49,477 bases of DNA from a virus (taxonomy: Duplodnaviria > Heunggongvirae > Uroviricota > Caudoviricetes): the IMG/VR virus record IMGVR_UViG_2703718798_000005. One strand, given 5' to 3'. The notes under the pieces were generated by a model, which did no database searches, was not told where the DNA came from, and worked only from the letters and a program-made list of their open reading frames with translations. Both the position numbers and the translations under genes were made by a program. Below are positions 1,067 through 49,477 of the stretch, piece by piece (the first letter of the stretch is position 1; each line of letters starts with the position of its first letter).

Positions 1067-3172
1067 ATGAGTGAAGGACCAGGCGGGCCACAGGGAGCGA
1101 CCGCAGGCGGTACGCTGGCAATGCGAATGCTGTCACAGCAGGCGATGGTCGCCAGCCAGATGAAACGGGCAGCCAACGACAAAGCCATTGCACAGATGTT
1201 GGCATCAAAAAAGTCTGGCTCCCCCGCCGCCAGGCTGGGCGATGAAATTCAGCACAAGAGTTTTTTGGGGGCGCTGGCAGGGGCCGTGCTGGGGGCGATA
1301 GTGACCATCGCAGAAGGTTGCCTGATTATGGCCGCCTGTGCCACCGGCCCTTATGCGCTGGTTCTGGTGCCTGCGCTGATGTATGCCAGCTATAAGGCGA
1401 GTGATTATGTGGAGGAGAAACAGAACCAGCTTGAATCATGGATAAACAGCTTTTGTGACACGGACGGCGCCATCAATACCGGTTCTGAAAACGTAAAAAT
1501 TAACGGAAAGCCAGCAGCCCGTGCAGCCGTCACCCTTCCCCCTCCTCCCCCACCTGGAGCAATACCTGAAGTCCCACAGGGGGAACCCTCATGGGGTGAT
1601 ATTGCCACTGACCTGCTTGAATCGGCAGCGGAAAAAGCAGTACCACTGGCGAAGGCCTGGGGGAACGCTGTTATCACCCTGACGGACAGCAATGCCAGTT
1701 TTATGGATCGCGTCAGTGCAGGCGCATCGCTTCTGTTTCCCAGCGGCCCGGTATTAATGGAATTTGCCACGATGGTGGGCGGGCGTGGCGAAATCAAAAA
1801 AGATGTGGATTTCCCGGAAGCCGGTGAGGACACGGCGCTCTGCGACAAGGAGAACAAACCACCGAGGATAGCCCAGGGCAGCAGCAACGTCTTTATCAAC
1901 AATCAGCCTGCCGCGCGCCAGGGGGACAAACTGGAGTGCAGTGCGGCGATCGTGGAAGGTTCGCCGGACGTCTTTATTGGGGGTGAGCAGGTCACCTATC
2001 TGGATATCCAGCCGGAGTTCCCGCCATGGCAGAGAATGATCCTGGGAGGAATAACGATAGCCAGCTATCTTCTGCCGCCAGCAGGACTGCTGGGAAAACT
2101 GGGGAATCTGGCGAAACTGGGCAAACTGGGAAACCTGCTGGGGAAAAGCGGAAAGCTGCTGGGCGCAAAACTCGGCGCGTTGCTGGGGAAAACAGGTAAG
2201 TCGTTAAAAAGTATTGCCAATAAAGTCATCAGATGGGTAACAGATCCTGTCGATCCGGTAACCGGCGCGTACTGCGACGAACGTACCGACTTCACCCTGG
2301 GCCAGACCCTCCCCCTCTCCTTCACCCGTTTCCACAGTTCGGTACTGCCACTGCATGGCCTGACGGGCGTGGGCTGGAGTGACTCCTGGAGCGAATACGC
2401 CTGGGTGCGTGAACAGGGAAACCGGGTGGATATCATCAGCCTGGGAGCCACGCTGAACTTCGCCTTCGACGGTGAAAGTGATACGGCGGTTAACCCGTAT
2501 CACGCCCAGTACATTCTGCGCCGCCGTGATGATTATCTGGAGCTGTTCGACAGGGATGCACTGAGCAGCCGCTTCTTTTATGACGCCTTTCCGGGAATGC
2601 GTCTGCGCCACCCGGTGACTGACGATACCAGCGATGACCGCCTGGCACACAGCCCCGCAGACCGGATGTACATGCTGGGCGGGATGAGCGACACCGCCAG
2701 CAACCGCATCACGTTTGAGCGCGACAGCCAGTACCGGATCACGGGTGTCAGTCACACCGACGGGATCCGGCTTAAACTGACGTACCACGCCAGCGGCTAC
2801 CTGAAAGCCATTCACCGCACGGATAACGGCATACAGACGCTGGCGACCTACGAACAGGATGCGCGGGGGCGGCTGACAGAAGCGGATGCGCGGCTGGACT
2901 ACCACCTGTTTTATGAGTACGACGCTGCGGACCGGATCATCCGCTGGTCCGATAACGACCAGACGTGGAGCCGTTTCACCTACGATGAACAGGGCCGGTG
3001 CGTGACCGTCACCGGGGCGGAGGGCTATTACAACGCCACGCTGGACTATGGGGACGGCTGCACCACCGTGACGGACGGCAAGGGCGCTCACCGTTATTAC
3101 TATGATCCTGACGGCAATATTCTGCGGGAAGAAGCGCCGGACGGCAGCACCACCACGTATGAATGGGTGTAA
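1067..3172 (+). pseudogene. rhs: rhs T6SS effector, 5' portion (prePAAR motif, TM helices, PAAR domain, first Rhs repeats), truncated by prophage insertion
   Basis: 701 aa ORF: AARLGDEIQH prePAAR-type motif, hydrophobic helices, PAAR-like segment (NVFINNQPAARQGDKLECSAAIVEGSPDVFIGG), YDxxGR-type repeats; stops two codons into the prophage left end; reading frame continues at about 42661. Confidence 0.8.
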
Positions 3173-3439: not shown

Positions 3440-3994
3440 TTACGCGCTGGTCTTTTTATAGGTTACATTGAAGTGATCAACCTTAGTCTTACAAAACTCG
3501 CAAATCTCTCTAATCTGTTCATCAGATAAATCATTTAAGCTTAAGGCTAGTGCTCTACGTTGACCGTGTAAGCTATGTAATTCCTGAATATCATTATCTA
3601 AAAGTATGGTTAAAAAATCTGCGCCTTTGCGGCCTAATTTCCTAGATAATTCATCAAGTTCTGTTGGTTCTAGAGAGCTCCATATAGCGCTAATCGTCTG
3701 GTAATCTCGTTCATCTGAAGACGCAATTGTCGGCCGAGTACTTTCTTGTGGCTGTATTGTTTTCGTGCCCAATATGAGCCATTCCAACGATACGTTTTCT
3801 ACCTTGCAAATATTGCTAACTACTTTTAGGCCAGGTGTGGTCCCTTTCTCAAAGTAGTTATTCAATGTTGAGTATGACAACCCCCAATCGATAGCTGCTT
3901 GCCGCATACTTCTGCTGCCGATTAGCTGCCTGATCCTGTCCTGGATACTTTCTTTTCCCTCTTCGACAAAAGAAAAATCTTGTTCCTGTCTCAT
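3440..3994 (-). CDS. Prophage repressor (Mu c-like), putative
   Basis: 184 aa leftward ORF at the left end, divergent from ner; HTH-like segment (LSYSTLNNYFEKG); positional equivalence to the Mu repressor. Confidence 0.55.
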   Translation of the reverse strand: MRQEQDFSFVEEGKESIQDRIRQLIGSRSMRQAAIDWGLSYSTLNNYFEKGTTPGLKVVSNICKVENVSLEWLILGTKTIQPQESTRPTIASSDERDYQTISAIWSSLEPTELDELSRKLGRKGADFLTILLDNDIQELHSLHGQRRALALSLNDLSDEQIREICEFCKTKVDHFNVTYKKTSA

Positions 3995-4403: not shown

Positions 4404-6491
4404 ATGTTTGCTTCAGTTAAAGAGCTGGTTGGATTACCGGGAATGCCGGGAACGGAGCAAGGCGTCCGCTATTCAATCAGGAAGTATGCAACCAGCGAAA
4501 CCAGCAGACGCCGCCAGGAAGGCACTAAAGGTTTTGAATACAGCATCGACTGTTTACCTGAAGTGACGCAGCAGGCATTACGTGAACGCTACGCCCTGCA
4601 ACTGATGACGCAAAAAGCCGACGAATCACCGGCTCCGGTGGTGACAAAGGCCAGACGCTCGCCTGCAGTGGTTGATGCGGTGGAGGCATATCGCGGATCA
4701 CCACAACTGATGGTCGAACGCCTTAATGCCCTGACTGAAAACCAGCGCCAGGTGGCTGATGCACGAATCGCGATCGTCAGCGAAGTGATGAAAGTCGCGC
4801 AACAACCCGGTTTCAGCTGCGCGAAGGCTATCCGGTTTATCGTTGACAACCTGGCACGTTCGCAACTGGACGAGCGCATTGTGGCAATGGTTGAGACGGC
4901 GAACGCCAAAAAGGGAAACAGCCGCGCGTTGAGTGAAATCACGCTGAAACGCTGGATTGCAGCCTTTAACAAGGCGCAGAACGCCGCCGAACGCCTGCTT
5001 TTGCTGGCACCGGGTAAGCGCCAGGAAATAAAAGCCGAAGATATTAACTGGCTGCCCGAGTTTCTGGCGCAGTATCGCCAGTCAAACGGTCGACCAATGA
5101 CCGAGGCTTACGAGGATTTTGTCGCTGAATGGCAGCACCGGCACGCTGATGAGCCTTATATGCTCGATATCATGCCCTCTTATGACACCATTCGCCGCGC
5201 AATGAAGAAACTGCCGGAAGTGGTGAAACAGAAAGGCCGGGTGACCGGCAGTGAATACCGTCAGCTTGAGGGATTCACGCGCCGCGACTGGTCCAGAATG
5301 CCGGTGAATTATGTCTGGATTGGTGACGGTCACGGCATGAAGCTGAAATGCGCGCACCCGGTTCACGGGCGGCCATTTGCACCGGAAGTAACCTTTGTTA
5401 TCGATGGCGGCACGCGCTTTGTGGTGGGCTGGAGCCTTGACCTGGCTGAAAATGTTTTCGCCGTAGCGGGTGCCATACAGCACGGCATTCGCCATCACGG
5501 CAAACCGTTTCTGTATTACTCGGATAACGGTTCCGGGGAAACCGCCGACATCCTGGATAAAGAAGTTGTGGGGATCCTGCCGCGACTGGGGATTAATCAC
5601 CCAACCGGGATTGCCGGTAATCCGCAGGGGCGAGGCATTATCGAACGGCTTAACCGCACATTACCGATGCGCATAGCCCGTAAATACCGCACCTATTTCG
5701 GGAAAGGTGCAGATCGCGAGACGTTACGCAAAACCAACCGCGATTTACGCTCGGCATTCACTGCCCTGCAACAGGACAAACGGCTGAACGCCCGGCAGCA
5801 GTCAGCGATGCGTGATTTACCGTCCTGGTCTGAACTGATTGATGCCATTCGTGATGGTGTTGAGTGGTACAACAACCGGCCGCACGATGAATTACCCATG
5901 AAGCCGAACGGTAAACATTACAGCCCGGCGGAGTTCAGAAAAAAACGCCTGGCGGAAGAGGACACGGAAATTGAATGGCTGTCCGATGTTGAGCTGCGGG
6001 ATATGTTCCGGCCGATGGTGAAGCGCCCTGTAAGACGCTGTGAAATACGCTGGCTGAATAATATTTACTACGCGCCGGAGCTGCGTGACGAGCATGGCCG
6101 CAAGGTGCTTATCAGCTATGACATTCATGATGCTGAGCGAATTACCGTACGCAGACTGGATGGCAGCGTGATTTGCGAGGCGGTATGGGACGGCAATAAA
6201 CGCGAAGCCTTCCCGGTCAGCGCGGAATACTACAAACAGCAGCAACGCCTTAAAGGCATGCGTAAACGCGCAGAGGAAAAAATCCGTGATGCCGAGGATG
6301 AGGTGGTCAACGTGCTGGAGCACAAACCGCAGGAGCCCTGGCTGGAAAACATCTATCGCCCGGTAGGTAATACGGTGGCCGTTCAGCAACCTGCCGTTGA
6401 TGATGAACCTGATGAAGAATACGAGCGTAATTTCCAGCGGGGATTGCAGCTGCTGGAAGCGAAATTAAAAGAAAATGACCCGCTGGCCTGA
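4404..6491 (+). CDS. Mu-type DDE transposase (MuA-like)
   Basis: 695 aa; candidate DDE triad in WIGDGHGMK, YYSDNGSGE and RGIIERLNRT contexts; follows ner as in Mu. Confidence 0.9.
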   Translation: MFASVKELVGLPGMPGTEQGVRYSIRKYATSETSRRRQEGTKGFEYSIDCLPEVTQQALRERYALQLMTQKADESPAPVVTKARRSPAVVDAVEAYRGSPQLMVERLNALTENQRQVADARIAIVSEVMKVAQQPGFSCAKAIRFIVDNLARSQLDERIVAMVETANAKKGNSRALSEITLKRWIAAFNKAQNAAERLLLLAPGKRQEIKAEDINWLPEFLAQYRQSNGRPMTEAYEDFVAEWQHRHADEPYMLDIMPSYDTIRRAMKKLPEVVKQKGRVTGSEYRQLEGFTRRDWSRMPVNYVWIGDGHGMKLKCAHPVHGRPFAPEVTFVIDGGTRFVVGWSLDLAENVFAVAGAIQHGIRHHGKPFLYYSDNGSGETADILDKEVVGILPRLGINHPTGIAGNPQGRGIIERLNRTLPMRIARKYRTYFGKGADRETLRKTNRDLRSAFTALQQDKRLNARQQSAMRDLPSWSELIDAIRDGVEWYNNRPHDELPMKPNGKHYSPAEFRKKRLAEEDTEIEWLSDVELRDMFRPMVKRPVRRCEIRWLNNIYYAPELRDEHGRKVLISYDIHDAERITVRRLDGSVICEAVWDGNKREAFPVSAEYYKQQQRLKGMRKRAEEKIRDAEDEVVNVLEHKPQEPWLENIYRPVGNTVAVQQPAVDDEPDEEYERNFQRGLQLLEAKLKENDPLA

Positions 6492-6566: not shown

Positions 6567-7499
6567 ATGACCGATATTAACGATGTAATCAAGACCATTG
6601 ATGAACTTATTGATGGCGGCGTACTGACACAGTATGCCATCGCCAGAGAGGCGGGAATTTCCGACGGCACATTATCGGCTTTCCGTAAGGGAAAATATAA
6701 AGGCGATAACGCTGCTGTGGCTGCTTCCCTGCGTTCCTGGTATGAGAACTGGAATAAACAAAGCGCACTGCCGGAACCGCCGCAGTTTGTGGAAACGCAG
6801 ACAGTCCAGGAGCTGCGCGCGCTGTTTCAGGCGGTTCGCCTGATGGGCTGTATTAACGTCATTGTGGGCGTGCCGGGTGTGGGTAAAACGGCCACCGCCC
6901 GTAATTACTGCCAGGAGCAACCAAACACCTGGATGATTACCCTGTCACCCGCGCACTCCAGCGTCACGGAGTGTTTGCTGGAGCTGGCCGATGCGCTGGG
7001 GATTGATTACACCCGCGCGAACAAAGGGGCATTATCCCGCGCCATCCGCCGCCGTCTGATGGGAACGCGTGGACTGGTGATTGTGGATGAGGCGGATCAT
7101 CTTGGTATTGACGGTCTGGAGCAACTCCGGGCAATTCAGGACGCCACGGGGATCGGGATGGTGCTTATTGGTAACCCGCGCGGACTGTTTAAAGGTGGAC
7201 GCCGCGCCTTTGATGATTTATCGCGCCTGTTCAGCCGTCTTGCCCGTACAAAACAACTTCGCAAGGCCAAAAAGGCAGATGTGCTGGCCATTGCCAGGGC
7301 ATGGGGTATCAGTGGTGAGGCAGAGCTGGTCGTGATGCAGGCTATCGCTGAAAAGCCCGGTGCGTTACGTGTTCTTACACATACGCTTAACCAGGCGTGG
7401 CTCACAGCCAGCGGTGAAGGCGCGGCGCTGACAGAAAAACATATTAATGCGGCCTTTAAAGAGGTTTATACCAACCCTGAATTACTCTCACAGGTGTGA
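6567..7499 (+). CDS. MuB-like ATP-dependent target DNA activator
   Basis: 310 aa; Walker A GVPGVGKT; directly downstream of the transposase. Confidence 0.85.
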   Translation: MTDINDVIKTIDELIDGGVLTQYAIAREAGISDGTLSAFRKGKYKGDNAAVAASLRSWYENWNKQSALPEPPQFVETQTVQELRALFQAVRLMGCINVIVGVPGVGKTATARNYCQEQPNTWMITLSPAHSSVTECLLELADALGIDYTRANKGALSRAIRRRLMGTRGLVIVDEADHLGIDGLEQLRAIQDATGIGMVLIGNPRGLFKGGRRAFDDLSRLFSRLARTKQLRKAKKADVLAIARAWGISGEAELVVMQAIAEKPGALRVLTHTLNQAWLTASGEGAALTEKHINAAFKEVYTNPELLSQV

Positions 7500-38371: not shown

Positions 38372-40411
38372 ATGACGTCCAAATGGGTTCAACTATCATC
38401 AATGCCCGGAAACTTTACTGTTAAAGTTTCCGGTGGTACAGCGGCATTTCTTGAGGCTCCCTTTCCTCCGGCCGAAACAAAAGGAGGAATGACATTTGCT
38501 GACTGTCTCATCAGTTTTAATACACGGGATTGCCTGTGGGTAAGGCCAGTATCCGGTGATCCGAGTGTGGAAATTACCGGAGCGGGTATTGGTGCGGTCA
38601 TTCCGTTAAGTGCTGATGTTGCCGGTACTGCTGAACCGTCAGACTGGGATAATGCTGAAACACATACCCGTCCGTCAGGAAATGAAACTGCTTCCAGCTC
38701 CCCTTCCTGGTATTACGTGGTGGTTCTTGCTGGTCAGTCAAACGGTATGGCTTACGGTGAAGGTCTGCCACTGCCGGAGACATATGACCGCCCCGAACCG
38801 CGTATTATGCAGTTAGCCCGTCGCAGTACAGTCACGCCGGGAGGTAAAGCCTGTCAGTATAACGACATCATTCTGGCCGACCACTGTCTGCATGATGTGC
38901 AGGATATGAGTGGAAAAAATCACCCGAAAGCGGATGTGGCTAAAGGGCAATATGGCACCGTGGGTCAGGGGCTTCACATTGCCAAAAAACTGCTGCCGTT
39001 TATTCCGGCAGATGCGGGGATTCTGCTGGTTCCCTGCTGCCGTGGTGGTTCTGCATTCACGGCGGGTGCTGACGGCACGTACAGTGACAGCACGGGTGCT
39101 TCAGAGGACTCAGCCCGCTGGGGTGTGGATAAGCCGCTGTATAAGGACTTAATCAGCCGGACAAAAGCGGCACTGGCGAAGAACCCGAAAAACCGCCTGC
39201 TTGCTGTGGTGTGGATGCAGGGCGAGTTTGATATTGATGCGAAGCCGACGGAGCATTCTGCGCTGTTTCTGGCGATGGTGGAAAAATTCCGCGCAGACCT
39301 GGCTGAACAGGCGGAACAGTGTACCGGTGGCAGTGCTGCTGGCGTTCCGTGGATTTGTGGCGATACCACGTATTTCTGGAAACAGAAAAATGAACCAGCA
39401 TACCAGGCAATCTATGGCGGCTACAAAAACAAAACAGATAAAAACATTCATTTCGTTCCATTAATGACAGATGAAAATGGCGTGAATGTACCCACCAACA
39501 ATCCGGCAGAAGACCCGGATATTGAATCCATTGGTTATTACGGCTCAACGTGGCGTAACAGTGCCGCTACCTGGACATCTGCGGACCGGGCCAGCCATTT
39601 CAGTGCCTGGGCGCGCCGGGGTATTATTTCTGACCGTCTGGCCACGGCTGTTCTGACTCATGCAGGGCGAACCACAGTAAAAGCCGATGTTCCATCTTCT
39701 GAAACTGAAGCACCAGTGCCGTCACCTTCAGAAACTGAAGCAGTAACCACAACACTGCTGTCTTACCGTGTCAGTGAGTCAGAAGGAAATCTGAAAGCCC
39801 AGGGCTGGGAGCCGGCTGGCGGTAAAGCTGAAATTATCAGTGATGCAGGAGGCACAGGTGGTAAGGCAATGAAACTGACCAAGGAAACAGGTAAATCATC
39901 CTGGTATCTGGATCATGATGCCGGTACTGGTGCTGAACTGCTGAAAAATGGTGGTTTAATCAGTTGTCGTTTTAAAGTACCTGGCGACCTGGTGGCAAAC
40001 CAGTATGTCATGGCGCTTTACTGGCCGGTTTCCTCTCTGCCGCAGGGTGTCACCCTGACAGGGGATGCAGGGAATAATCTGCTGGCATCGTTCTACATCC
40101 AGACAGACGCAAAAGACCTGAATGTGATGTACCACAATGCAAAAGTGGCAACAAATAACCAGAAACTGGGAACCTTTGGTGCATTTGATAATGAATGGCA
40201 TACGCTGGCCTTCCGTTTTGCAGGAAATAACAGCCTTCAGGTTATTCCGGTTATTGATGGTCAGGATGGTGCCGCGTTTACCCTGACGCAGTCACCAGTA
40301 GGAACTTTCCCGGTGGACAAACTCCGCGTAACGGATATCACCAAAAATGCAACTTACCCGGTGCTGATTGACAGCATTGTGGTGGAAGTGAAAAAAGCGG
40401 TAACAGAATAA
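38372..40411 (+). CDS. Cargo protein: SASA/SGNH-type esterase domain (sialate O-acetylesterase-like, NanS-p-like) with a lectin-like C-terminal domain
   Basis: 679 aa; YYVVVLAGQSNGMAYGEG block resembles the GQSN motif of DUF303/SASA esterases; C-terminal 200 aa may be a ConA-like beta-sandwich; no counterpart at this position in Mu. Confidence 0.55.
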   Translation: MTSKWVQLSSMPGNFTVKVSGGTAAFLEAPFPPAETKGGMTFADCLISFNTRDCLWVRPVSGDPSVEITGAGIGAVIPLSADVAGTAEPSDWDNAETHTRPSGNETASSSPSWYYVVVLAGQSNGMAYGEGLPLPETYDRPEPRIMQLARRSTVTPGGKACQYNDIILADHCLHDVQDMSGKNHPKADVAKGQYGTVGQGLHIAKKLLPFIPADAGILLVPCCRGGSAFTAGADGTYSDSTGASEDSARWGVDKPLYKDLISRTKAALAKNPKNRLLAVVWMQGEFDIDAKPTEHSALFLAMVEKFRADLAEQAEQCTGGSAAGVPWICGDTTYFWKQKNEPAYQAIYGGYKNKTDKNIHFVPLMTDENGVNVPTNNPAEDPDIESIGYYGSTWRNSAATWTSADRASHFSAWARRGIISDRLATAVLTHAGRTTVKADVPSSETEAPVPSPSETEAVTTTLLSYRVSESEGNLKAQGWEPAGGKAEIISDAGGTGGKAMKLTKETGKSSWYLDHDAGTGAELLKNGGLISCRFKVPGDLVANQYVMALYWPVSSLPQGVTLTGDAGNNLLASFYIQTDAKDLNVMYHNAKVATNNQKLGTFGAFDNEWHTLAFRFAGNNSLQVIPVIDGQDGAAFTLTQSPVGTFPVDKLRVTDITKNATYPVLIDSIVVEVKKAVTE

Positions 40412-41640: not shown

Positions 41641-41841
41641 ATGTATCGAAACATACGGTGCCGACACTGCAATAAGCTACTGGCACGGGCCAGTTTCAGT
41701 TATCTGGAAGTAAAATGTCCGCGCTGTAAAACCCTCAATCAAATCACATCTCCGAGCGCCACAGAGCACCCCACATACACAAGGAAATCCTGTCGTGGGG
41801 AACAGAAAGCAAGTCACATCCCGAATCATCAGCACGCCTGA
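41641..41841 (+). CDS. com: Com-like zinc-finger translational activator of mom
   Basis: Start moved to ATG 41641; [14 protein letters not shown]...[11 protein letters not shown] four-Cys pattern like Mu Com; overlaps the mom start. Confidence 0.75.
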
Positions 41842-42532
41842 ACTTATTCGCTATAACGACAATATCGTTGGTTATGGCTCCCGTGAGTTGCGGGTTGAGA
41901 CAATAAGTTGCTGGCTGGCCAGACTGGTCATCGTCAATAAACATTACAGCCACCGTTTCGTAAATAACTCCTACCTTCATCTGGGCATATTTTCAGAACG
42001 GGAACTTGTTGGCGTAATGCAATGGGGTTACGCCCTTAACCCAAACAGTGGTGCACGCGTCGTAACGGGTACGCAGAACCGAGAATATATGGAGCTTAAC
42101 CGGCTATGGCTGCATGACTGTATGCCGAGAAACTCCGAATCAAGGGCAATCAGTTACGCGCTCAAGCTAATCAGGCAGCTTTATCCGCAGGTACAGTGGG
42201 TTCAGTCGTTTGCAGATGAGCGTTGTGGCTGTCTTGGTGTCGTGTATCAGGCAAGCAATTTTGATTATGTAGGCAGCCATGAATCAATATTCTATGAACT
42301 TGATGGCGAGTGGTATCACGAGATTTGCAGGAATGCCATTAAACGAGGCGGACAACGAGGTGAACATCTGAGGGCTAATATTGACAGAGCCAATGTTCAT
42401 AAGTTCCGACAGTTTCGTTACATCCGGTTTCTGAACAAGAGGGCCAAAAAACGCCTCAACACAAAGCTATTCAAAGTCCAGCCTTACCCAAAACCACAAA
42501 CAGTTAAAACTGGTTTGAAAGAGAGTGAATGA
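41795..42532 (+). CDS. mom: Mom-like DNA modification protein
   Basis: 245 aa; last gene at the right end and overlapped by com, as in Mu; start codon uncertain. Confidence 0.75.
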
Positions 42533-42659: not shown

Positions 42660-42660
42660 A

Positions 42661-45441
42661 TGGGATGAATACCATCACCTGCTGGCCCGCCACTCCCCTG
42701 CCGGGCGGGTGGAGAAATTTGAATACAACGCCGCACATGGTCAGTTAAGCTGTTATACGGCGGCAGACGGCGCGGAGTGGCAGTACTGCTATGATGAGCG
42801 CGGCCTGCTCAGCAACATCACCGACCCTGCCGGGCAGACGTGGACGCAGCAGTGTGATGAACGCGGCCTGCCGGTGAGTCTGGTGTCGCCACAGGGCGAA
42901 GAGACCCGGCTGGCATACACCGCACAGGGGCTGCTGTCGGGAATATTCCGCCAGGATGAACGGCACCTGGGCATAGAGTACGACCACCACAACCGGCCGG
43001 AAACACTCACCGACGTGATGGGCCGTGAACACCACACCGAATACAGTGGTCACGACCTGCCGGTGAAGATGCGCGGCCCCGGCGGTTAGTCAGTGCGGTT
43101 GCAGTGGCAGCAGCACCATAAACTGAGCGGCCTTGAGCGGGCAGGAACCGGCGCAGAAGGATTCCGCTATGACCGCCACGGCAACCTGCTGGCGTACACG
43201 GACGGTAACGGCGTTGTCTGGACAATGGAATACGGCCCGTTTGATTTGCCGGTGGCGCGAACGGACGGTGAAGGCCACCGCTGGCAGTACCGCTACGATA
43301 AAGACACGCTGCAACTGACAGAAGTCATTAACCCGCAGGGCGAGTCTTATCTTTATATTCTGGACAACTGTGGCCGGGTGACGGAAGAACGTGACTGGGG
43401 CGGCGTGGTCTGTCGTTACCGCTATGACGCCGATGGCCTGTGTACCGCCAGGGTTAACGGCCTGGAGGAAACTATCCTCTACAGCCGGGACGCCGCAGGC
43501 CGCCTGGCAGAAATCATCACGCCGGAAGGCAAAACGCAGTATGCGTATGACAAATCCGGCAGGCTGACGGGTATCTTCAGCCCGGACGGCACATCACAGC
43601 GCACCGGCTATGATGAACGCGGGCGGGTGAATGTCACCACTCAGGGCCGACGGGCCATTGAATACCACTACCCCGACGAACACACCGTCATCCGCTGTAT
43701 CCTGCCACCGGAAGATGAACGCGACAGACACCCCGATGAATCCCTGCTGAAAACCACGTACCGTTATAACGCCGCCGGAGAACTGACGGAGGTCATTCTG
43801 CCGGGGGATGAGACGCTGACGTTCAGCCGTGATGAGGCGGGACGTGAAGTGCTCCGGCACAGTAACCGGGGTTTTGCCTGTGAGCAGGGCTGGAATGCAG
43901 CCAGCCAGCTTGTCACCCAGCGCGCCGGATTTTTCCCGGAGGAAACCACATGGGGCGGGCTGCTCCCCTCACTGGTACGGGAGTACCGTTACGACAGCGC
44001 GGGCAATGTGTCGGCTGTCACCAGCCGGGAAGATTACGGACGGGAAACACGGCGGGAGTACCGGCTGGACCGGAACGGTCAGGTCACGGCGGTGACAGCC
44101 TCAGGCACCGGGCTGGGCTATGGCGAAGGCGATGAGTCCTATGGCTATGACAGTTGTGGCTACCTGAAGGCGCAGTCTGCGGGCAGGCACCGGATAAGTG
44201 AAGAGACTGACCAGTATGCCGGAGGCCACCGGCTGAAACAGGCCGGAAACACGCAGTATGACTATGACGCCGCAGGCCGGATGGTCAGCCGCACAAAACA
44301 CCGTGACGGCTACCGCCCGGAAACAGAGCGGTTCCGGTGGGACAGCCGGGACCAGCTGACCGGGTATTGCAGCGCACAGGGTGAACAGTGGGAATACCGC
44401 CACGACGCCAGCGGCAGACGAACAGAGAAACGCTGTGACAGGAAGAAAATCCGCTTCACGTACCTGTGGGATGGCGACAGTATTGCGGAAATCCGGGAAT
44501 ACCGCGATGATGAACTGTACAGCGTACGGCACCTGGTGTTTAACGGCTTTGAGCTGATAAGCCAGCAGTGCAGCCGGGTACGGCAGCCGCACCCGTCCGT
44601 GGCCCCGCAGTGGGTGACGCGAACGAATCATGCGGTGAGCGACCTGACGGGCCGCCCGCTGATGCTCTTTAACAGTGAAGGTAAAACCGTCTGGCGGCCG
44701 GGGCAGACCAGCCTGTGGGGGCTGGCACTCAGCCTGCCCGCAGACACCGGCTACCCGGACCCGCGCGGGGAGCGGGACCCGGAAGCGGACCCCGGCCTGC
44801 TGTATGCGGGACAGTGGCAGGATGCAGAATCGGGGCTGTGCTATAACCGGTTCCGGTACTACGAGCCGGAAACCGGGATGTACCTGGTGAGTGATCCGCT
44901 GGGGTTGCAGGGAGGGGAGCAGACTTACCGGTATGTGCCGAATCCTTGTGGGTATATCGATCCTTTGGGGCTGGCTATATGTCAGTTAGCCCGCTGGACG
45001 AAATGGGGGAGTGAGCAAAGCAACATATCTGATGTTTTGAACTCATTAGGGAATAGAGCACTTAAATATGCTAATGGTGATTGGATAAAATCAGAGGCTG
45101 CATTCAATAAATACATAAACATGATAAATAAAAGACTAGAATTAACAGGTAGTAAATTTAGAGTTGAGATTCAACCAGCCATAAAAAATGGAGAGCGAGT
45201 TCCTGCGACAACGAATGGACCATTTAAAGTAAATGGTAAGTGGACATCCGGCACTCATTATACAGGTGGTTCCAAACGTCTAGATGCCGGTATTATTGAT
45301 ATCACATCTCCTACAAACCAATATGGATTACATCCAGTTATTGAAGGATTTGATATAACACTTAATAAAACAAAACCATCAGCAGTGGATATATATTCAG
45401 ATGTGTTTGGTGGGATTGATATTAACGACATTCGGTTATAA
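42661..45441 (+). pseudogene. rhs: rhs effector, 3' portion (Rhs repeat core and C-terminal toxin tip), with in-frame TAG at 43087-43089
   Basis: Frame continues the 5' fragment; ORF track splits it into 42709-43089 and 43093-45441 around a TAG; DPLGL-type demarcation (YIDPLGLA) at about 44960; low-GC C-terminal tip of about 150 aa. Confidence 0.8.
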
Positions 45442-45458
45442 AACAATAAGGCGGCAAT

Positions 45459-45866
45459 ATGAAAGAGATTGATTTATTATATGAAAATATTTATCAGCTT
45501 TTAATTAAACCTTACCTACTCGATCTTTCTAGCCAGTCTGGAAAAAAAATAGAAGTAAATTACACATGCAAAATAAAAGATGCTGCTGATGAAATAAAGG
45601 GTAGTATGATTTTTAATGATGTAGATGGTAAACAAAAAGCAACTTGCACTATCAGGGTGTTAATACTAAAAACATTTCACGATGGTCGTTATAGATTTGT
45701 AATTGAATCTGTGATTTATGATTTAATTAATAATTACAGTGGATTTATTTTAACGGGGAGATTGTTTTGGCAAGGGGAAGGTTTTGGCCATGAATTATTC
45801 CCCGTGACAAACAAATATAATGCTTGGAGATGGAAAAATAAAAAAATAATAGATATTTCTTGGTAA
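45459..45866 (+). CDS. Putative Rhs immunity protein (cognate to the main toxin tip)
   Basis: 135 aa AT-rich ORF 17 nt downstream of the rhs stop. Confidence 0.6.
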   Translation: MKEIDLLYENIYQLLIKPYLLDLSSQSGKKIEVNYTCKIKDAADEIKGSMIFNDVDGKQKATCTIRVLILKTFHDGRYRFVIESVIYDLINNYSGFILTGRLFWQGEGFGHELFPVTNKYNAWRWKNKKIIDISW

Positions 45867-45879
45867 GGAAAATATTCCC

Positions 45880-46905
45880 CGAAAGAGGCCACATGGGGAA
45901 TACTGCTCCCCTCACTGGTACGGGAGTACCGTTACGACAGCGCGGGTAACGTATCAGGCGTCACCAGCCGGGAAGATTACGGACGGGAAACACAGCGGGA
46001 GTACCGGCTTGACCGGAACGGCCAGGTCACGGCGGTGACAGCCTCAGGCACCGGGCTGGGCTATGGCGAAGGCGATGAGTCCTATGGCTATGACAGTTGT
46101 GGCTACCTGAAGGCGCAGTCTGCGGGCGGGCACCGGATAAGTGAAGAGACTGACCAGTATGCCGGAGGCCACCGGCTGAAACAGGCCGGAAACACGCAGT
46201 ATGACTATGACGCCGCAGGCCGGATGGTCAGCCGCACCAGACACCGTGACGGCTATCGCCCGGAAACAGAGCGGTTCCGGTGGGACAGCCGGGACCAGCT
46301 GACCGGGTATTGCAGCGCACAGGGTGAGCAGTGGGAATACCGCCACGACGCCAGCGGCAGACGGACGGAAAAACGCTGTGACCGGAAGAAAATCCGTTTT
46401 ACGTACCTGTGGGACGGCGACAGTATTGCGGAAATCCGGGAATACCGCGATGATGAACTGTACAGCGTACGGCACCTGGTGTTTAACGGCTTTGAGCTGA
46501 TAAGCCAGCAGTGCAGCCGGGTACGGCAGCCGCACCCGTCCGTGGCCCCGCAGTGGGTGACACGAACGAATCATGCGGTAAGCGACCTGACGGGCCGCCC
46601 GCTGATGCTCTTTAACAGTGAAGGCAAGACGGTCTGGCGACCGGGACAGACCAGCCTGTGGGGGCTGGCACTCAGCCTGCCCGCAGACACAGACTACCCG
46701 GACCCGCGCGGGGAGCTGGACGCGGAAGCCGACCCCGGCCTGCTGTATGCAGGACAGTGGCAGGATGCAGAATCGGGGTTGTGCTATAACCGGTTCCGAT
46801 ATTACGAGCCGGAAACCGGGATGTACCTGGTGAGTGATCCACTGGGGTTGCTGGGGGGTAAGCAGACTTACCGGTATGTGCCGAATCCACTGGGGTATAT
46901 TGATC
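45880..46905 (+). repeat. Duplicated rhs core segment (orphan copy of about 43945-44930)
   Basis: Near-identical DNA to the main rhs core; translations match over long stretches (ASGTGLGYGEGDESYGYDSCGYLKAQSAG...). Confidence 0.85.
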
Positions 46906-47306
46906 CGCTGGGGCTGGTAAAAACTTCTGTTCCCGCAGAAAAAATAAGCCTTTCGGATAAAGCAAGAGATCTTTTTAGACAAGGAAAAGTAAGAGAAGCA
47001 TTAGATGTTCATTATGAGGATCTTGTACGAAGAAAGCTTGGTGGTATATCTCAAGAAATTGCCGGGCGTGAATATGATGTTGTTACTGACAAGATCATAG
47101 CGCAGGTCAAGAGGACTTATAGCTCTATAGATAATCCAAAAAACTTCTTAAGTAAGTCTACTCGGACACAAATTAAGAAGACAATTGAGCTGGCTGAAGA
47201 ACAGGGGAAAGAGGCTCAGTTTTGGTTTAAATATGGAGTAAGCCCTAAAGTAAGAGAATATATAGAAAGCAAAGGTGGGAAAGTTATATTGGGTATGGGG
47301 AATTAA
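46035..47306 (+). CDS. Orphan Rhs C-terminal module with a different toxin tip
   Basis: ORF starting at an internal start codon within the duplicated core; after DPLGLV (about 46905) the sequence differs completely from the main tip and becomes AT-rich. Confidence 0.65.
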   Translation: MTASGTGLGYGEGDESYGYDSCGYLKAQSAGGHRISEETDQYAGGHRLKQAGNTQYDYDAAGRMVSRTRHRDGYRPETERFRWDSRDQLTGYCSAQGEQWEYRHDASGRRTEKRCDRKKIRFTYLWDGDSIAEIREYRDDELYSVRHLVFNGFELISQQCSRVRQPHPSVAPQWVTRTNHAVSDLTGRPLMLFNSEGKTVWRPGQTSLWGLALSLPADTDYPDPRGELDAEADPGLLYAGQWQDAESGLCYNRFRYYEPETGMYLVSDPLGLLGGKQTYRYVPNPLGYIDPLGLVKTSVPAEKISLSDKARDLFRQGKVREALDVHYEDLVRRKLGGISQEIAGREYDVVTDKIIAQVKRTYSSIDNPKNFLSKSTRTQIKKTIELAEEQGKEAQFWFKYGVSPKVREYIESKGGKVILGMGN

Positions 47307-47307
47307 C

Positions 47308-47673
47308 ATGTCAAGATATATACTTATTAGAGGTTGGTTTGAGTGCGACTTTGAACAAGTAAAAAAAATAAAAGAAGCTAATGAAGAATTTTTCAAACAT
47401 TCTGAAAAATATTTATTACCAGAAAACACGAAACGACTTTATTTAAATGGGTGGTGTTACCCAGAATATCCTATCAACTGGGTTAGCGTTATTTCCTTAG
47501 GTGTTAATATAAATCAAATTGCATTTGATTATATAAAAGACATGATTGTAAATGTTTCAAGAACTGAAAGATTGGATGGTTATTTTCGTGTGAATGATGA
47601 TGAAGATAATTTATTCTTAGAATGGATTGTAAAAGATGGTTATTTAGAGGAAATAATTTTGTCTGGTTCATAA
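47308..47673 (+). CDS. Putative immunity protein for the orphan toxin tip
   Basis: 121 aa ORF beginning at the ATG overlapping the toxin stop; AT-rich. Confidence 0.55.
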   Translation: MSRYILIRGWFECDFEQVKKIKEANEEFFKHSEKYLLPENTKRLYLNGWCYPEYPINWVSVISLGVNINQIAFDYIKDMIVNVSRTERLDGYFRVNDDEDNLFLEWIVKDGYLEEIILSGS

Positions 47674-47703
47674 ATTCATCTTCTTTGTTGAGAAGATTAA
47701 CTG

Positions 47704-47848
47704 CCTAGGTGAAATTATCCTCTATGACCGGGACGCTGCAGGCCACCTGGCAGAAGTCATCACGCAGGAAGACAAGTCGCTGTATCCCTTTGAAAAATCC
47801 GGCAGGCTAATGGGCATCTTCAGCCCAGGCGGCACATCACAGCGAATT
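47704..47848 (+). pseudogene. Decayed rhs core remnant
   Basis: About 75 percent identity to rhs core at about 43470-43612 by eye; no intact ORF. Confidence 0.55.
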
Positions 47849-47947
47849 TGAAGGCAAATGCGAAAATTAGTGATCTTGAAGTTCATACAGTATTGGTAAA
47901 AACAGGCGAAGCTTTTCCAATGTGTAAGAATTTTCAAATTTCAATAT

Positions 47948-48415
47948 TTGGCGCTGTTGTTACAAGCGGGTGATTATATGTGTGAATTAATTAATGAAGC
48001 ATCAAAATATGGGAAAGTCAATGTAAGAAAGATGGACATTGATTTGTGTTGTAAAAAAATAGAGGAAGAAGGGTATTCTGTTTTCGTTGCGTTCTATGAT
48101 TTTATAAAAAAATATGGCGGTTTATATGGCTTTCATTCAGCTTACAAAGACACCACTATAAGTGAGGCTTTTTTTATAGATCCAGAAAGGGCCTCTAATC
48201 GCATTTTTATAGAAAGAGTCAATGATTATATTGAGAGAGCTGGTTACAATATGATTCCTGTTGGCGAGTGCAGTAATGGTCATATCACATTATTATATGG
48301 GGAAAATAATGTGATATATGGCGGCTTGGATGATTATCTTTGGAAGTATGGGGATAATTTATCTTCATCAATTGATATATTGATTAATGGCAAGGAGGCA
48401 GTTGAAATTCCGTAA
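47948..48415 (+). CDS. Hypothetical protein, possible stand-alone immunity gene
   Basis: 155 aa AT-rich ORF after an rhs remnant, with no intact toxin tip upstream. Confidence 0.35.
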   Translation: MALLLQAGDYMCELINEASKYGKVNVRKMDIDLCCKKIEEEGYSVFVAFYDFIKKYGGLYGFHSAYKDTTISEAFFIDPERASNRIFIERVNDYIERAGYNMIPVGECSNGHITLLYGENNVIYGGLDDYLWKYGDNLSSSIDILINGKEAVEIP

Positions 48416-48429
48416 GGCCAACTTGATAT

Positions 48430-48698
48430 GACACCTGGCACACAACCCCGACGACCGGATGTATATGCTGGGCGGGATGAGTGACACCTCCAGCAACCGC
48501 ATCACGTTTGAGCGCGACAGCCAGTACCGGATCACAGGTGTCAGTCACACCGACGGGATCCGGCTTAAACTGACGTACCACGCCAGCGGCTACCTGAAAG
48601 CCATTCACCGCACGGGTAACGGCATACAGACGCAGGGAAAGATCATCAGAAGTACACTTTTTGTACTAAATAATTCGCATTTTATGTTTAAAAATTGA
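48430..48698 (+). pseudogene. Remnant derived from the 5' part of rhs
   Basis: Encodes MYMLGGMSDTSSNRITFERDSQYRITGVSHTDGIRLKLTYHASGYLKAIHRT, near-identical to the rhs segment at about 2660-2840; homology ends at about 48650. Confidence 0.6.
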
Positions 48699-48776
48699 GA
48701 TATTCCTCATTACCTGAAGCTGTTTTTTATTGCTTATACATGATCAAATACTCCTTACATAATTAAGGAGAACAAA

Positions 48777-49477
48777 ATGGAACTTAAAAAATTGATGGAA
48801 CATATTTCTGTTATTCCCGATTACAGACAACCCTGGAAAGTGGAACATAAATTATCGGATATTCTACTGTGGACTATTTGTGCCGTTATTTCTGGTGCAG
48901 AAGGTTGGGAAGATATAGAGGATTTTGGGGAAACACATCTCGATTTTTTGAAGCAATATGGTGATTTTGAAAATGGCATTCCTGTTCACGATACCATTGC
49001 CAGAGTTGTATACTGTATCAGTCCCGCAAAATTTCACGAGTGCTTTATTAACTGGATGCGTGACTGCCATTCTTCAGATGATAAAGACGTCATCGCAATT
49101 GATGGAAAAACACTCCGGCATTCTTATGACAAGAGTCGCCGCAAGGGAGCGATTCATGTCATTAGTGCGTTCTCAACAATGCACAGTCTGGTCATCGGAC
49201 AGATCAGGACGGATGAGAAATCCAATGAGATTACAGCTATCCCTGGACTTCTTAACATGCTGGATATTAAAGGAAAAATTATCACAACTGATGCTATGGG
49301 TTGCCAGAAAGATATCGCAGAGAAGATACAAAAACAGGGCGGTGATTATTTATTCGCTGTAAAAGGAAATCAGGGGCGGCTTAATAAAGCCTTTGAGGAA
49401 AAATTTCCACTGAAAGAATTAAATAATCCAGAGCATGACAGTTACGCAATGAGTGAAAAGAGTCACGGCAGAGAAGA
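48777..49477 (+). CDS. ISAs1-family transposase (H-repeat-associated protein), 3' end beyond the window
   Basis: Frame 3 is open from ATG 48777 to the window end with no stop (absent from the ORF track for that reason); [54 protein letters not shown] matches the E. coli H-repeat protein as recalled. Confidence 0.8.

Follow-up and report, generated by a model that had tools for sequence, protein, structure and literature searches.

What is left at the far end of this Rhs locus, and does the small open reading frame that lies there between fragments of rhs and an H-repeat element encode an immunity protein whose toxin is carried by other strains? An initial annotation of the stretch of DNA analyzed here (49,477 nucleotides in full length; hereafter the window) had read this end as decayed rhs fragments, a lone reading frame lacking a toxin partner, and the beginning of an ISAs1-family element, and had taken the layout as a record of successive recombination or IS-mediated rearrangements. 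In the region, 47697-49477, an Rhs toxin array of E. coli comes to its worn distal end; loci of this kind are ordinary and well understood, and the pieces of this one are already annotated one by one in RefSeq. All four elements first listed exist, well beyond chance expectation, and their limits shift by no more than about 17 nt. We interpret the region as the end at which an array of displaced Rhs C-terminal (CT) toxin/immunity modules is oldest and most decayed, shaped by an internal deletion and by trimming anchored at an IS end and retaining an orphan SUKH-3 immunity gene, and we assign a probability of roughly 0.8 to this explanation as a whole.

The source of the window is an E. coli chromosomal segment: positions 47600-48800 match strain TB06051 at 100% identity and DSM 103246, among others, at 99.7%. 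The island, for which K-12 has an empty site, is flanked by cusS and nfrB and is ordered vgrG, DcrB/EagR-like chaperone, PAAR-Rhs. Within the PAAR-Rhs gene sits a 39.5 kb Mu-like prophage (3168-42659), bounded by a 5 bp target duplication (ATGGG, 3163-3167 and 42660-42664) and encoding MuA (4404-6491), MuB (6567-7499), Mom (41795-42532) and, on the minus strand, a CI-type repressor (3440-3994). A 679 aa prophage reading frame at 38372-40411, with a SASA-type sialate O-acetylesterase domain and DUF6645, probably encodes a tail fibre or receptor-modifying protein. TB06051, O26 11368 and NCTC9112 are free of this prophage. The window's main rhs also carries a premature TAG at 43087-43089, where TB06051 has CAG. 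Broken both by the prophage and by this stop codon, the main toxin gene of the window strain is thus inactivated twice. In the window all three immunity genes that follow it (products of 135, 121 and 145 aa) are intact, and the locus can be described as disarmed and still potentially immune. The main Rhs CT (44975 to 45441) and the 135 aa reading frame downstream of it (45459-45866) belong to no Pfam or NCBIfam family; O157:H7 and O55:H7 strains carry the module 44975-45866 at 100% identity, and it is present in some 320 genomes. An Rfam scan of both strands of 45400-49477 returned zero matches, and the minus-strand reading frames of the region (71, 74 and 55 aa) overlap plus-strand features and were rejected as unsupported.

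The module that precedes the region illustrates how such an array grows. It consists of an rhs 3' core with a Tox-REase-3 CT (46035-47306, plus strand; PF15647, E = 7.9e-36) followed by a 121 aa immunity gene (47308-47673, plus strand), and the same sequence (46035..47673) constitutes the main Rhs of TB06051. Relative to that strain the window contains one extra CT/immunity module, 44975-45888, which moved the Tox-REase-3 CT, together with the immunity gene that goes with it, downstream to form a second orphan (orphan 2). Fourteen of the 16 differences between orphan 2 and TB06051 fall within its first 135 nt, and 40 of the 45 differences in the main core lie after position 44295. The two clusters occupy the 5' end of orphan 2 (45889-46130) and the 3' end of the main core (44295-44974). 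If an incoming core-CT-immunity fragment recombined by a single crossover, differences would be expected in this pattern, and the clusters are a clean signature of one such crossover in C-terminal displacement, located at about 44079 to 44295. Displacement of this kind is the model reportedly put forward for orphan module arrays by Jackson et al. in 2009.

The lone reading frame further downstream is an intact SUKH-3 immunity gene (47978-48415, plus strand; 145 aa, 33% G+C). Residues 25-138 of its product match profile positions 28-146 of 146 in PF14433 (E = 1.1e-12; 48.8 bits against a cut-off of 23). The protein is 100% identical to the copy that lies beside an intact Rhs-deaminase in NCTC9112 and corresponds to WP_033815380.1 of TB06051 in RefSeq, where the DNA is identical to the window at this point. 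The 155 aa frame first proposed for 47948-48415 does exist mechanically, but its TTG start falls inside the tail of the toxin reading frame, and the gene begins at the ATG at 47978, the annotated RefSeq start in TB06051, O26 11368 and NCTC9112. Zhang et al. (2011; PMC3113570) defined SUKH proteins as conferring immunity to polymorphic toxins of the nuclease and deaminase kinds, and Iyer et al. (2011; PMC3239186) list SUKH3 among the immunity families that accompany the YwqJ clade. Because the product belongs to the SUKH-3 family and is identical to that of the gene downstream of the NCTC9112 Rhs-deaminase, the frame is an orphan immunity gene whose toxin resides in other strains, as the initial annotation had supposed; as far as sequence relationships reach, that is the correct description of it. 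Comparison establishes the anatomy and the toxin-immunity pairing; expression, neutralization and any selective benefit are putative. Sequence searches of the PDB found no relative of the SUKH-3 protein or of the deaminase toxin, and an AlphaFold2 model of SUKH-3 built from a four-sequence alignment (mean pLDDT 40) was too poor for a fold search.

Upstream of this gene lies the 3' remnant of its toxin, a YwqJ-like deaminase Rhs-CT (47847-47973, plus strand), which comprises the last 41 codons and the stop in the frame 47848-47973. Window positions 47847-48423 align with NCTC9112 (locus sequence L004, 8999-9575) at 99.65% identity over 577 nt, and the alignment starts exactly where the rhs core fragment upstream ends and stops 8 nt past the SUKH-3 stop. 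At the same cusS-nfrB site NCTC9112 encodes a 1606 aa Rhs protein that ends in the deaminase CT, with SUKH-3 starting 4 nt later; in the window, likewise, the SUKH-3 ATG lies 4 nt past the toxin stop. The intact NCTC9112 CT matches PF14431 (30.1 bits against a cut-off of 25.9) and contains both CAE and PMCKNC. The window retains toxin residues 101-141 of 141 (tblastn); the CAE catalytic motif has been deleted, and the second cysteine of the PCxxC motif is replaced by phenylalanine (PMCKNF). Judged by the [CH]xE and PCxxC motifs of YwqJ-like deaminases (PF14431), the remnant is a fragment of a family member and not a functional member. All orphan copies examined (window, TB06051, O26 11368 and RM10466) carry phenylalanine at this second zinc-motif position (codon at 47933), and NCTC9112 and the Salmonella stubs retain cysteine. 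With CAE gone, a zinc-ligand cysteine now phenylalanine, and the remnant joined out of frame to a core piece that runs into a TGA, the window toxin is irreversibly dead. Measured against the plan of an orphan module, namely core, PxxxxDPxGL boundary, CT and immunity gene, the region has the core piece and the immunity gene and has lost the boundary together with some 100 codons of the CT; it derives by decay from an orphan rhs-CT/immunity module.

The core piece itself occupies 47697-47844 (plus strand) and corresponds to core nucleotides ~2890-3040. A blastn search of the region against the window aligned it to 43454-43601 with 83.1% identity over 148 nt (E = 1.7e-39). The fragment first placed at 47704-47848 is therefore real, with limits that required correction. 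Its in-frame translation is NCLGEIILYDRDAAGHLAEVITQEDKSLYPFEKSGRLMGIFSPGGTSQR, and that of the resident core counterpart is NGLEETILYSRDAAGRLAEIITPEGKTQYAYDKSGRLTGIFSPDGTSQR. The 49 open codons lack a start codon and reach a TGA at 47849-47851. By analogy with orphan 2, the piece is probably of foreign origin and formed the 5' end of an older orphan. The main rhs cores were considered as carriers of a segment of this 83% type and ruled out, all being 90-100% identical.

Downstream of SUKH-3 a short spacer (48416-48433, plus strand) leads into a second rhs fragment. The first 8 nt of the spacer (GGCCAACT) belong to the deaminase/SUKH-3 module as in NCTC9112, and the remainder forms the junction to the next rhs copy; strain 14EC047 carries an identical junction. 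The fragment, the stub of a 5'-truncated rhs copy (48434-48632, plus strand; gene nucleotides ~1575-1774), is cut off at the end of the insertion element ISEc1. By blastn, 48434-48636 aligns with window 2641-2843, that is, nucleotides ~1575-1777 of the ~4.8 kb rhs gene, at 95.6% identity over 203 nt (E = 4.6e-91), and true rhs homology ends at 48632/48633. The rhs origin of the fragment initially placed at 48430-48650 thus stands and its limits do not, nor does the proposal that it was copied from the 5' part of rhs: it is rather the leftover of a long truncated copy. In 14EC047, 1770 bp of rhs follow the same junction after the SUKH-3 stop (GGCCAACTTGATATGACACCTGGC...); in O26 11368 and RM10466 about 336 bp remain, extending in O26 11368 133 bp beyond the window stub; and in the window type, whose junction occurs in 6 genomes, 200 bp remain. 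The IS of NCTC9112 adjoins a different core fragment. Formal alignment, set beforehand as the test of the rhs assignment, yielded significant matches of both fragments to the window's own PAAR-Rhs at the E values given above.

ISEc1, an H-rpt element of the ISAs1 family, extends from 48633 to the last position of the window (48633-49477, plus strand), which ends inside the element. Its transposase begins at the ATG at 48777, as first annotated, and matches NF033564 (E = 8.1e-83; 278 bits against 70) as well as DDE_Tnp_1_assoc and DDE_Tnp_1. The ISAs1-family element was thus correctly recognized, although its boundary was put too far downstream at about 48650: the terminal inverted repeat sought in that area, CAGGGAAAGATCAT, was found before it, at 48633-48646, and also opens the H-rpt copies of K-12 RhsB and RhsE. 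The ends of ISEc1 were set against these K-12 copies (1291 bp), the right-end inverted repeat and four locus sequences (L001, L002, L004 and L005). The right end, ...ATCTTGCCCTG, is shared by all four loci and K-12 and matches the left end as an inverted repeat at 11 of 14 positions. No direct repeat that could represent a target-site duplication flanks the ISEc1 copies at this locus or the RhsB and RhsE copies of K-12, as fits a rearranged or deleted flank. Three different left junctions exist, each at the exact ISEc1 terminus, and rhs stops at that terminus in every strain with an intact left end, 14EC047 excepted, where IS1 intervenes. On the right, all four strains compared share one junction (IS|CCTGCTCACC), where the IS is followed by 116 bp of island DNA and these by K-12-type sequence. 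Those 116 bp (L002 11457-11572; L001 10102-10214; outside the window) are island-specific, precede the K-12-type region upstream of nfrB, show no rhs similarity, and diverge by about 7-8% in strains with flanks less than 1% apart.

Two alternatives bear on how these junctions and fragments arose. On the aligned junctions, the nested rhs truncations are most simply explained as deletions that each started from the left end of the IS. With IS alleles differing by 3-7%, exchange between alleles or independent insertion may also be compatible. Were the junctions produced by independent ISEc1 insertions into rhs through target preference, rather than by nested deletions at one resident IS, the 3-7% difference between strains among the copies at this locus, as large as that between copies at different K-12 loci, would be readily accommodated, as would the repeated occurrence of H-rpt beside Rhs elements such as K-12 RhsB and RhsE. 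Against such insertions, the right junction is constant in four strains and the left alone moves, no rhs sequence was found to continue to the right of the IS, target-site duplications are absent, and the K-12 copies do not lie within rhs core; we therefore consider this origin rather unlikely. According to the E. coli W genome paper (PMC3032704), no transposition of H-rpt/ISEc1 has been observed. Less probable still is that the 148 nt core fragment diverged in place, through neutral decay of a formerly resident core, and was not imported with a foreign rhs. Its dN/dS of 0.51, calculated on 49 codons only and giving no clear constraint, would suit such decay. So would the missing donor: among 5426 E. 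coli genomes no sequence outside the same context is more than 84% identical to the fragment, and the sole match of its translation in one-genome-per-species contigs is an irrelevant Streptomyces sequence at 37% identity. Decay in place is nevertheless hard to reconcile with a divergence of 17% where flanking DNA differs by 0-3% between the same strains, or with 49 codons that contain neither a stop nor an indel. The fragment is, moreover, 100% identical among TB06051, O26 11368, RM10466 and the window, strains with differing neighbouring DNA, and donor-type differences are likewise present at the 5' end of the window's orphan 2.

Under the preferred reading of a displaced and subsequently decayed module, the region would have started as a partial rhs core, a YwqJ-like nucleic-acid deaminase CT and a SUKH-3 immunity gene. 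An internal deletion of ~1.65 kb would then have removed the remaining core, the DPxGL boundary and the first ~100 toxin codons, fusing the 148 nt core piece, out of frame, to the 41 codons at the end of the toxin gene and leaving the immunity gene untouched. A long 5'-truncated rhs copy would formerly have lain downstream, and deletions anchored at the left terminus of ISEc1 would have trimmed it to 200 bp. Both recombination and IS-mediated rearrangement, as originally suggested, are visible in the comparison of strains, and this one window documents the single-crossover signature of C-terminal displacement together with a truncation series anchored at ISEc1.

Across E. coli the two halves of the module have fared very differently. 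The 5' part of the toxin occurs in 5 of 5426 complete genomes, and the toxin tail with SUKH-3 (coverage of at least 80%) in 279 of 5426. A further 87 genomes, out of 366 with any trace, hold partial SUKH-3 remnants only; the RM10466 gene has an in-frame 204 nt deletion, and 14EC047 retains the last 80 nt only. All full-length copies are at least 99% identical. The toxin-bearing strains are NCTC9112, SCU-316, LH50-c, O78 strain 3 and KV7, and the immune-only strains, about 270, include O26 and O111 STEC. A word-indexed search of 5.8 billion proteins recovered four immunity clusters and one toxin cluster, too few for a good alignment, and the SUKH-3 protein detected no related loci in one-genome-per-species contigs. 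Salmonella possesses a SUKH-3 homologue of 65% identity, located downstream of an Rhs(Ntox30)-immunity pair and preceded by the 27 toxin codons that are left, and a third enterobacterial lineage possesses one of 69% identity whose upstream toxin has apparent frameshifts. On these sequences, loss of the toxin with retention of the immunity gene is a recurring pattern that includes Salmonella and the third lineage. In Salmonella (L006 8589-8897, contig AAEVIH010000019.1) a SymE-type toxin gene follows the orphan SUKH-3 on the opposite strand, and a second vgrG comes next.

What the surviving gene does can be read in several ways. Taken literally, the initial annotation implied a stand-alone immunity gene acquired or retained with no toxin sequence at all, and Pfam indeed detects no toxin domain when 47848-47973 is searched alone. 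A full toxin is absent, as it had stated, but the 41 codons and stop directly upstream, 97.6% identical to the NCTC9112 deaminase CT and at native spacing, refute the literal version, to which we give almost no credence. A far more serious contender, falling somewhat short of even odds, is that SUKH-3 is a silent and useless leftover, intact through recent displacement and affording no protection in nature. A scan for sigma-70 promoters and terminators found 4 sites against 6.4 expected, none of them upstream of 47978, and read-through from the vgrG promoter is doubtful in the window since the main rhs is broken by the Mu-like prophage and the TAG. Partial remnants in 87 of 366 trace genomes indicate that SUKH-3 is dispensable in some lineages, selection on it would be weak because the toxin is so rare, and with full-length copies this similar its intactness may reflect recent common descent rather than selection. 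Against a mere relic stand the identity of the protein to the copy in a functional context in NCTC9112 and the independent survival, in E. coli, Salmonella and the third lineage, of an intact immunity gene next to a ruined toxin. The dN/dS among these three immunity genes is also low, about 0.1 (0.10-0.19), a value not assignable to the orphan period. Orphan immunity genes are, furthermore, known to act elsewhere: orphan cdiI genes are expressed and protective in E. coli EC93 CDI (PMC3150448), and for the Rhs1 system of Serratia experiments have demonstrated protection by an orphan Rhs immunity protein (PMC10539506). Weighing both sides, we lean slightly toward a SUKH-3 that is still a competent and expressed immunity factor. 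If made, the protein would, by analogy, neutralize the Rhs-deaminase delivered by the few carrier strains. It is doubtful that the gene is actively maintained as a stand-alone shield, with the toxin destroyed independently at least three times and the junctions forming a natural record of deletions anchored at H-rpt/ISEc1 ends. If that were true, a mutagenic deaminase could be costly to its producer, and lineages would drop the weapon and keep the antidote. The locus adds no new principle and offers a clean natural test case for 'orphan immunity' in E. coli.

Several described systems resemble this one. Like the orphan rhs-CT/rhsI and cdiA-CT/cdiI arrays (Poole et al., 2011; PMC3150448), the window array lies downstream of a full-length, vgrG-linked PAAR-Rhs and presents a partial core, then a CT, then an immunity gene; the same module is found on a full-length gene in NCTC9112, and the neighbouring module bears a crossover signature. 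Unlike the modules of those arrays, that of the window is internally deleted, cannot be reloaded as a toxin, and preserves the immunity half only. The immunity gene SMDB11_2280 of Serratia marcescens Db10 (Hagan et al., 2023; PMC10539506), an orphan without a CT, likewise follows an Rhs-RhsI pair, and other strains of its species bear the matching toxin on the same Rhs core. The window differs in that the toxin belongs to the deaminases and not to the NADases, part of it persists as a stub, and protection is putative. With the YwqJ-like deaminases accompanied by SUKH-3 (PMC3239186, PMC3113570) the pair shares Pfam families scored above their cut-offs, CAE and PCxxC in the NCTC9112 CT, fusion of the toxin to RHS repeats, and an immunity gene directly downstream, although the pair in the window and NCTC9112 belongs to a narrow enterobacterial subfamily.

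Two further observations concern module boundaries and the IS. On the core sequence, the 5' limit of the core fragment (47690-47700) and that of the NCTC9112 AHH orphan (L004 9568-9582) fall within about 10 nt of each other. The 7-mer AACTGCC precedes both limits, through chance or a shared old junction; a meaning for it was rejected, chance being the most likely cause. The window ISEc1 is 96-97% identical to the H-rpt of K-12 RhsB and RhsE, has the same termini, and likewise occupies the distal position in an Rhs element. The DNA around the K-12 copies is AT-rich and non-core, whereas the left end of ISEc1 at the cusS-nfrB locus adjoins rhs core, at three points in different strains.
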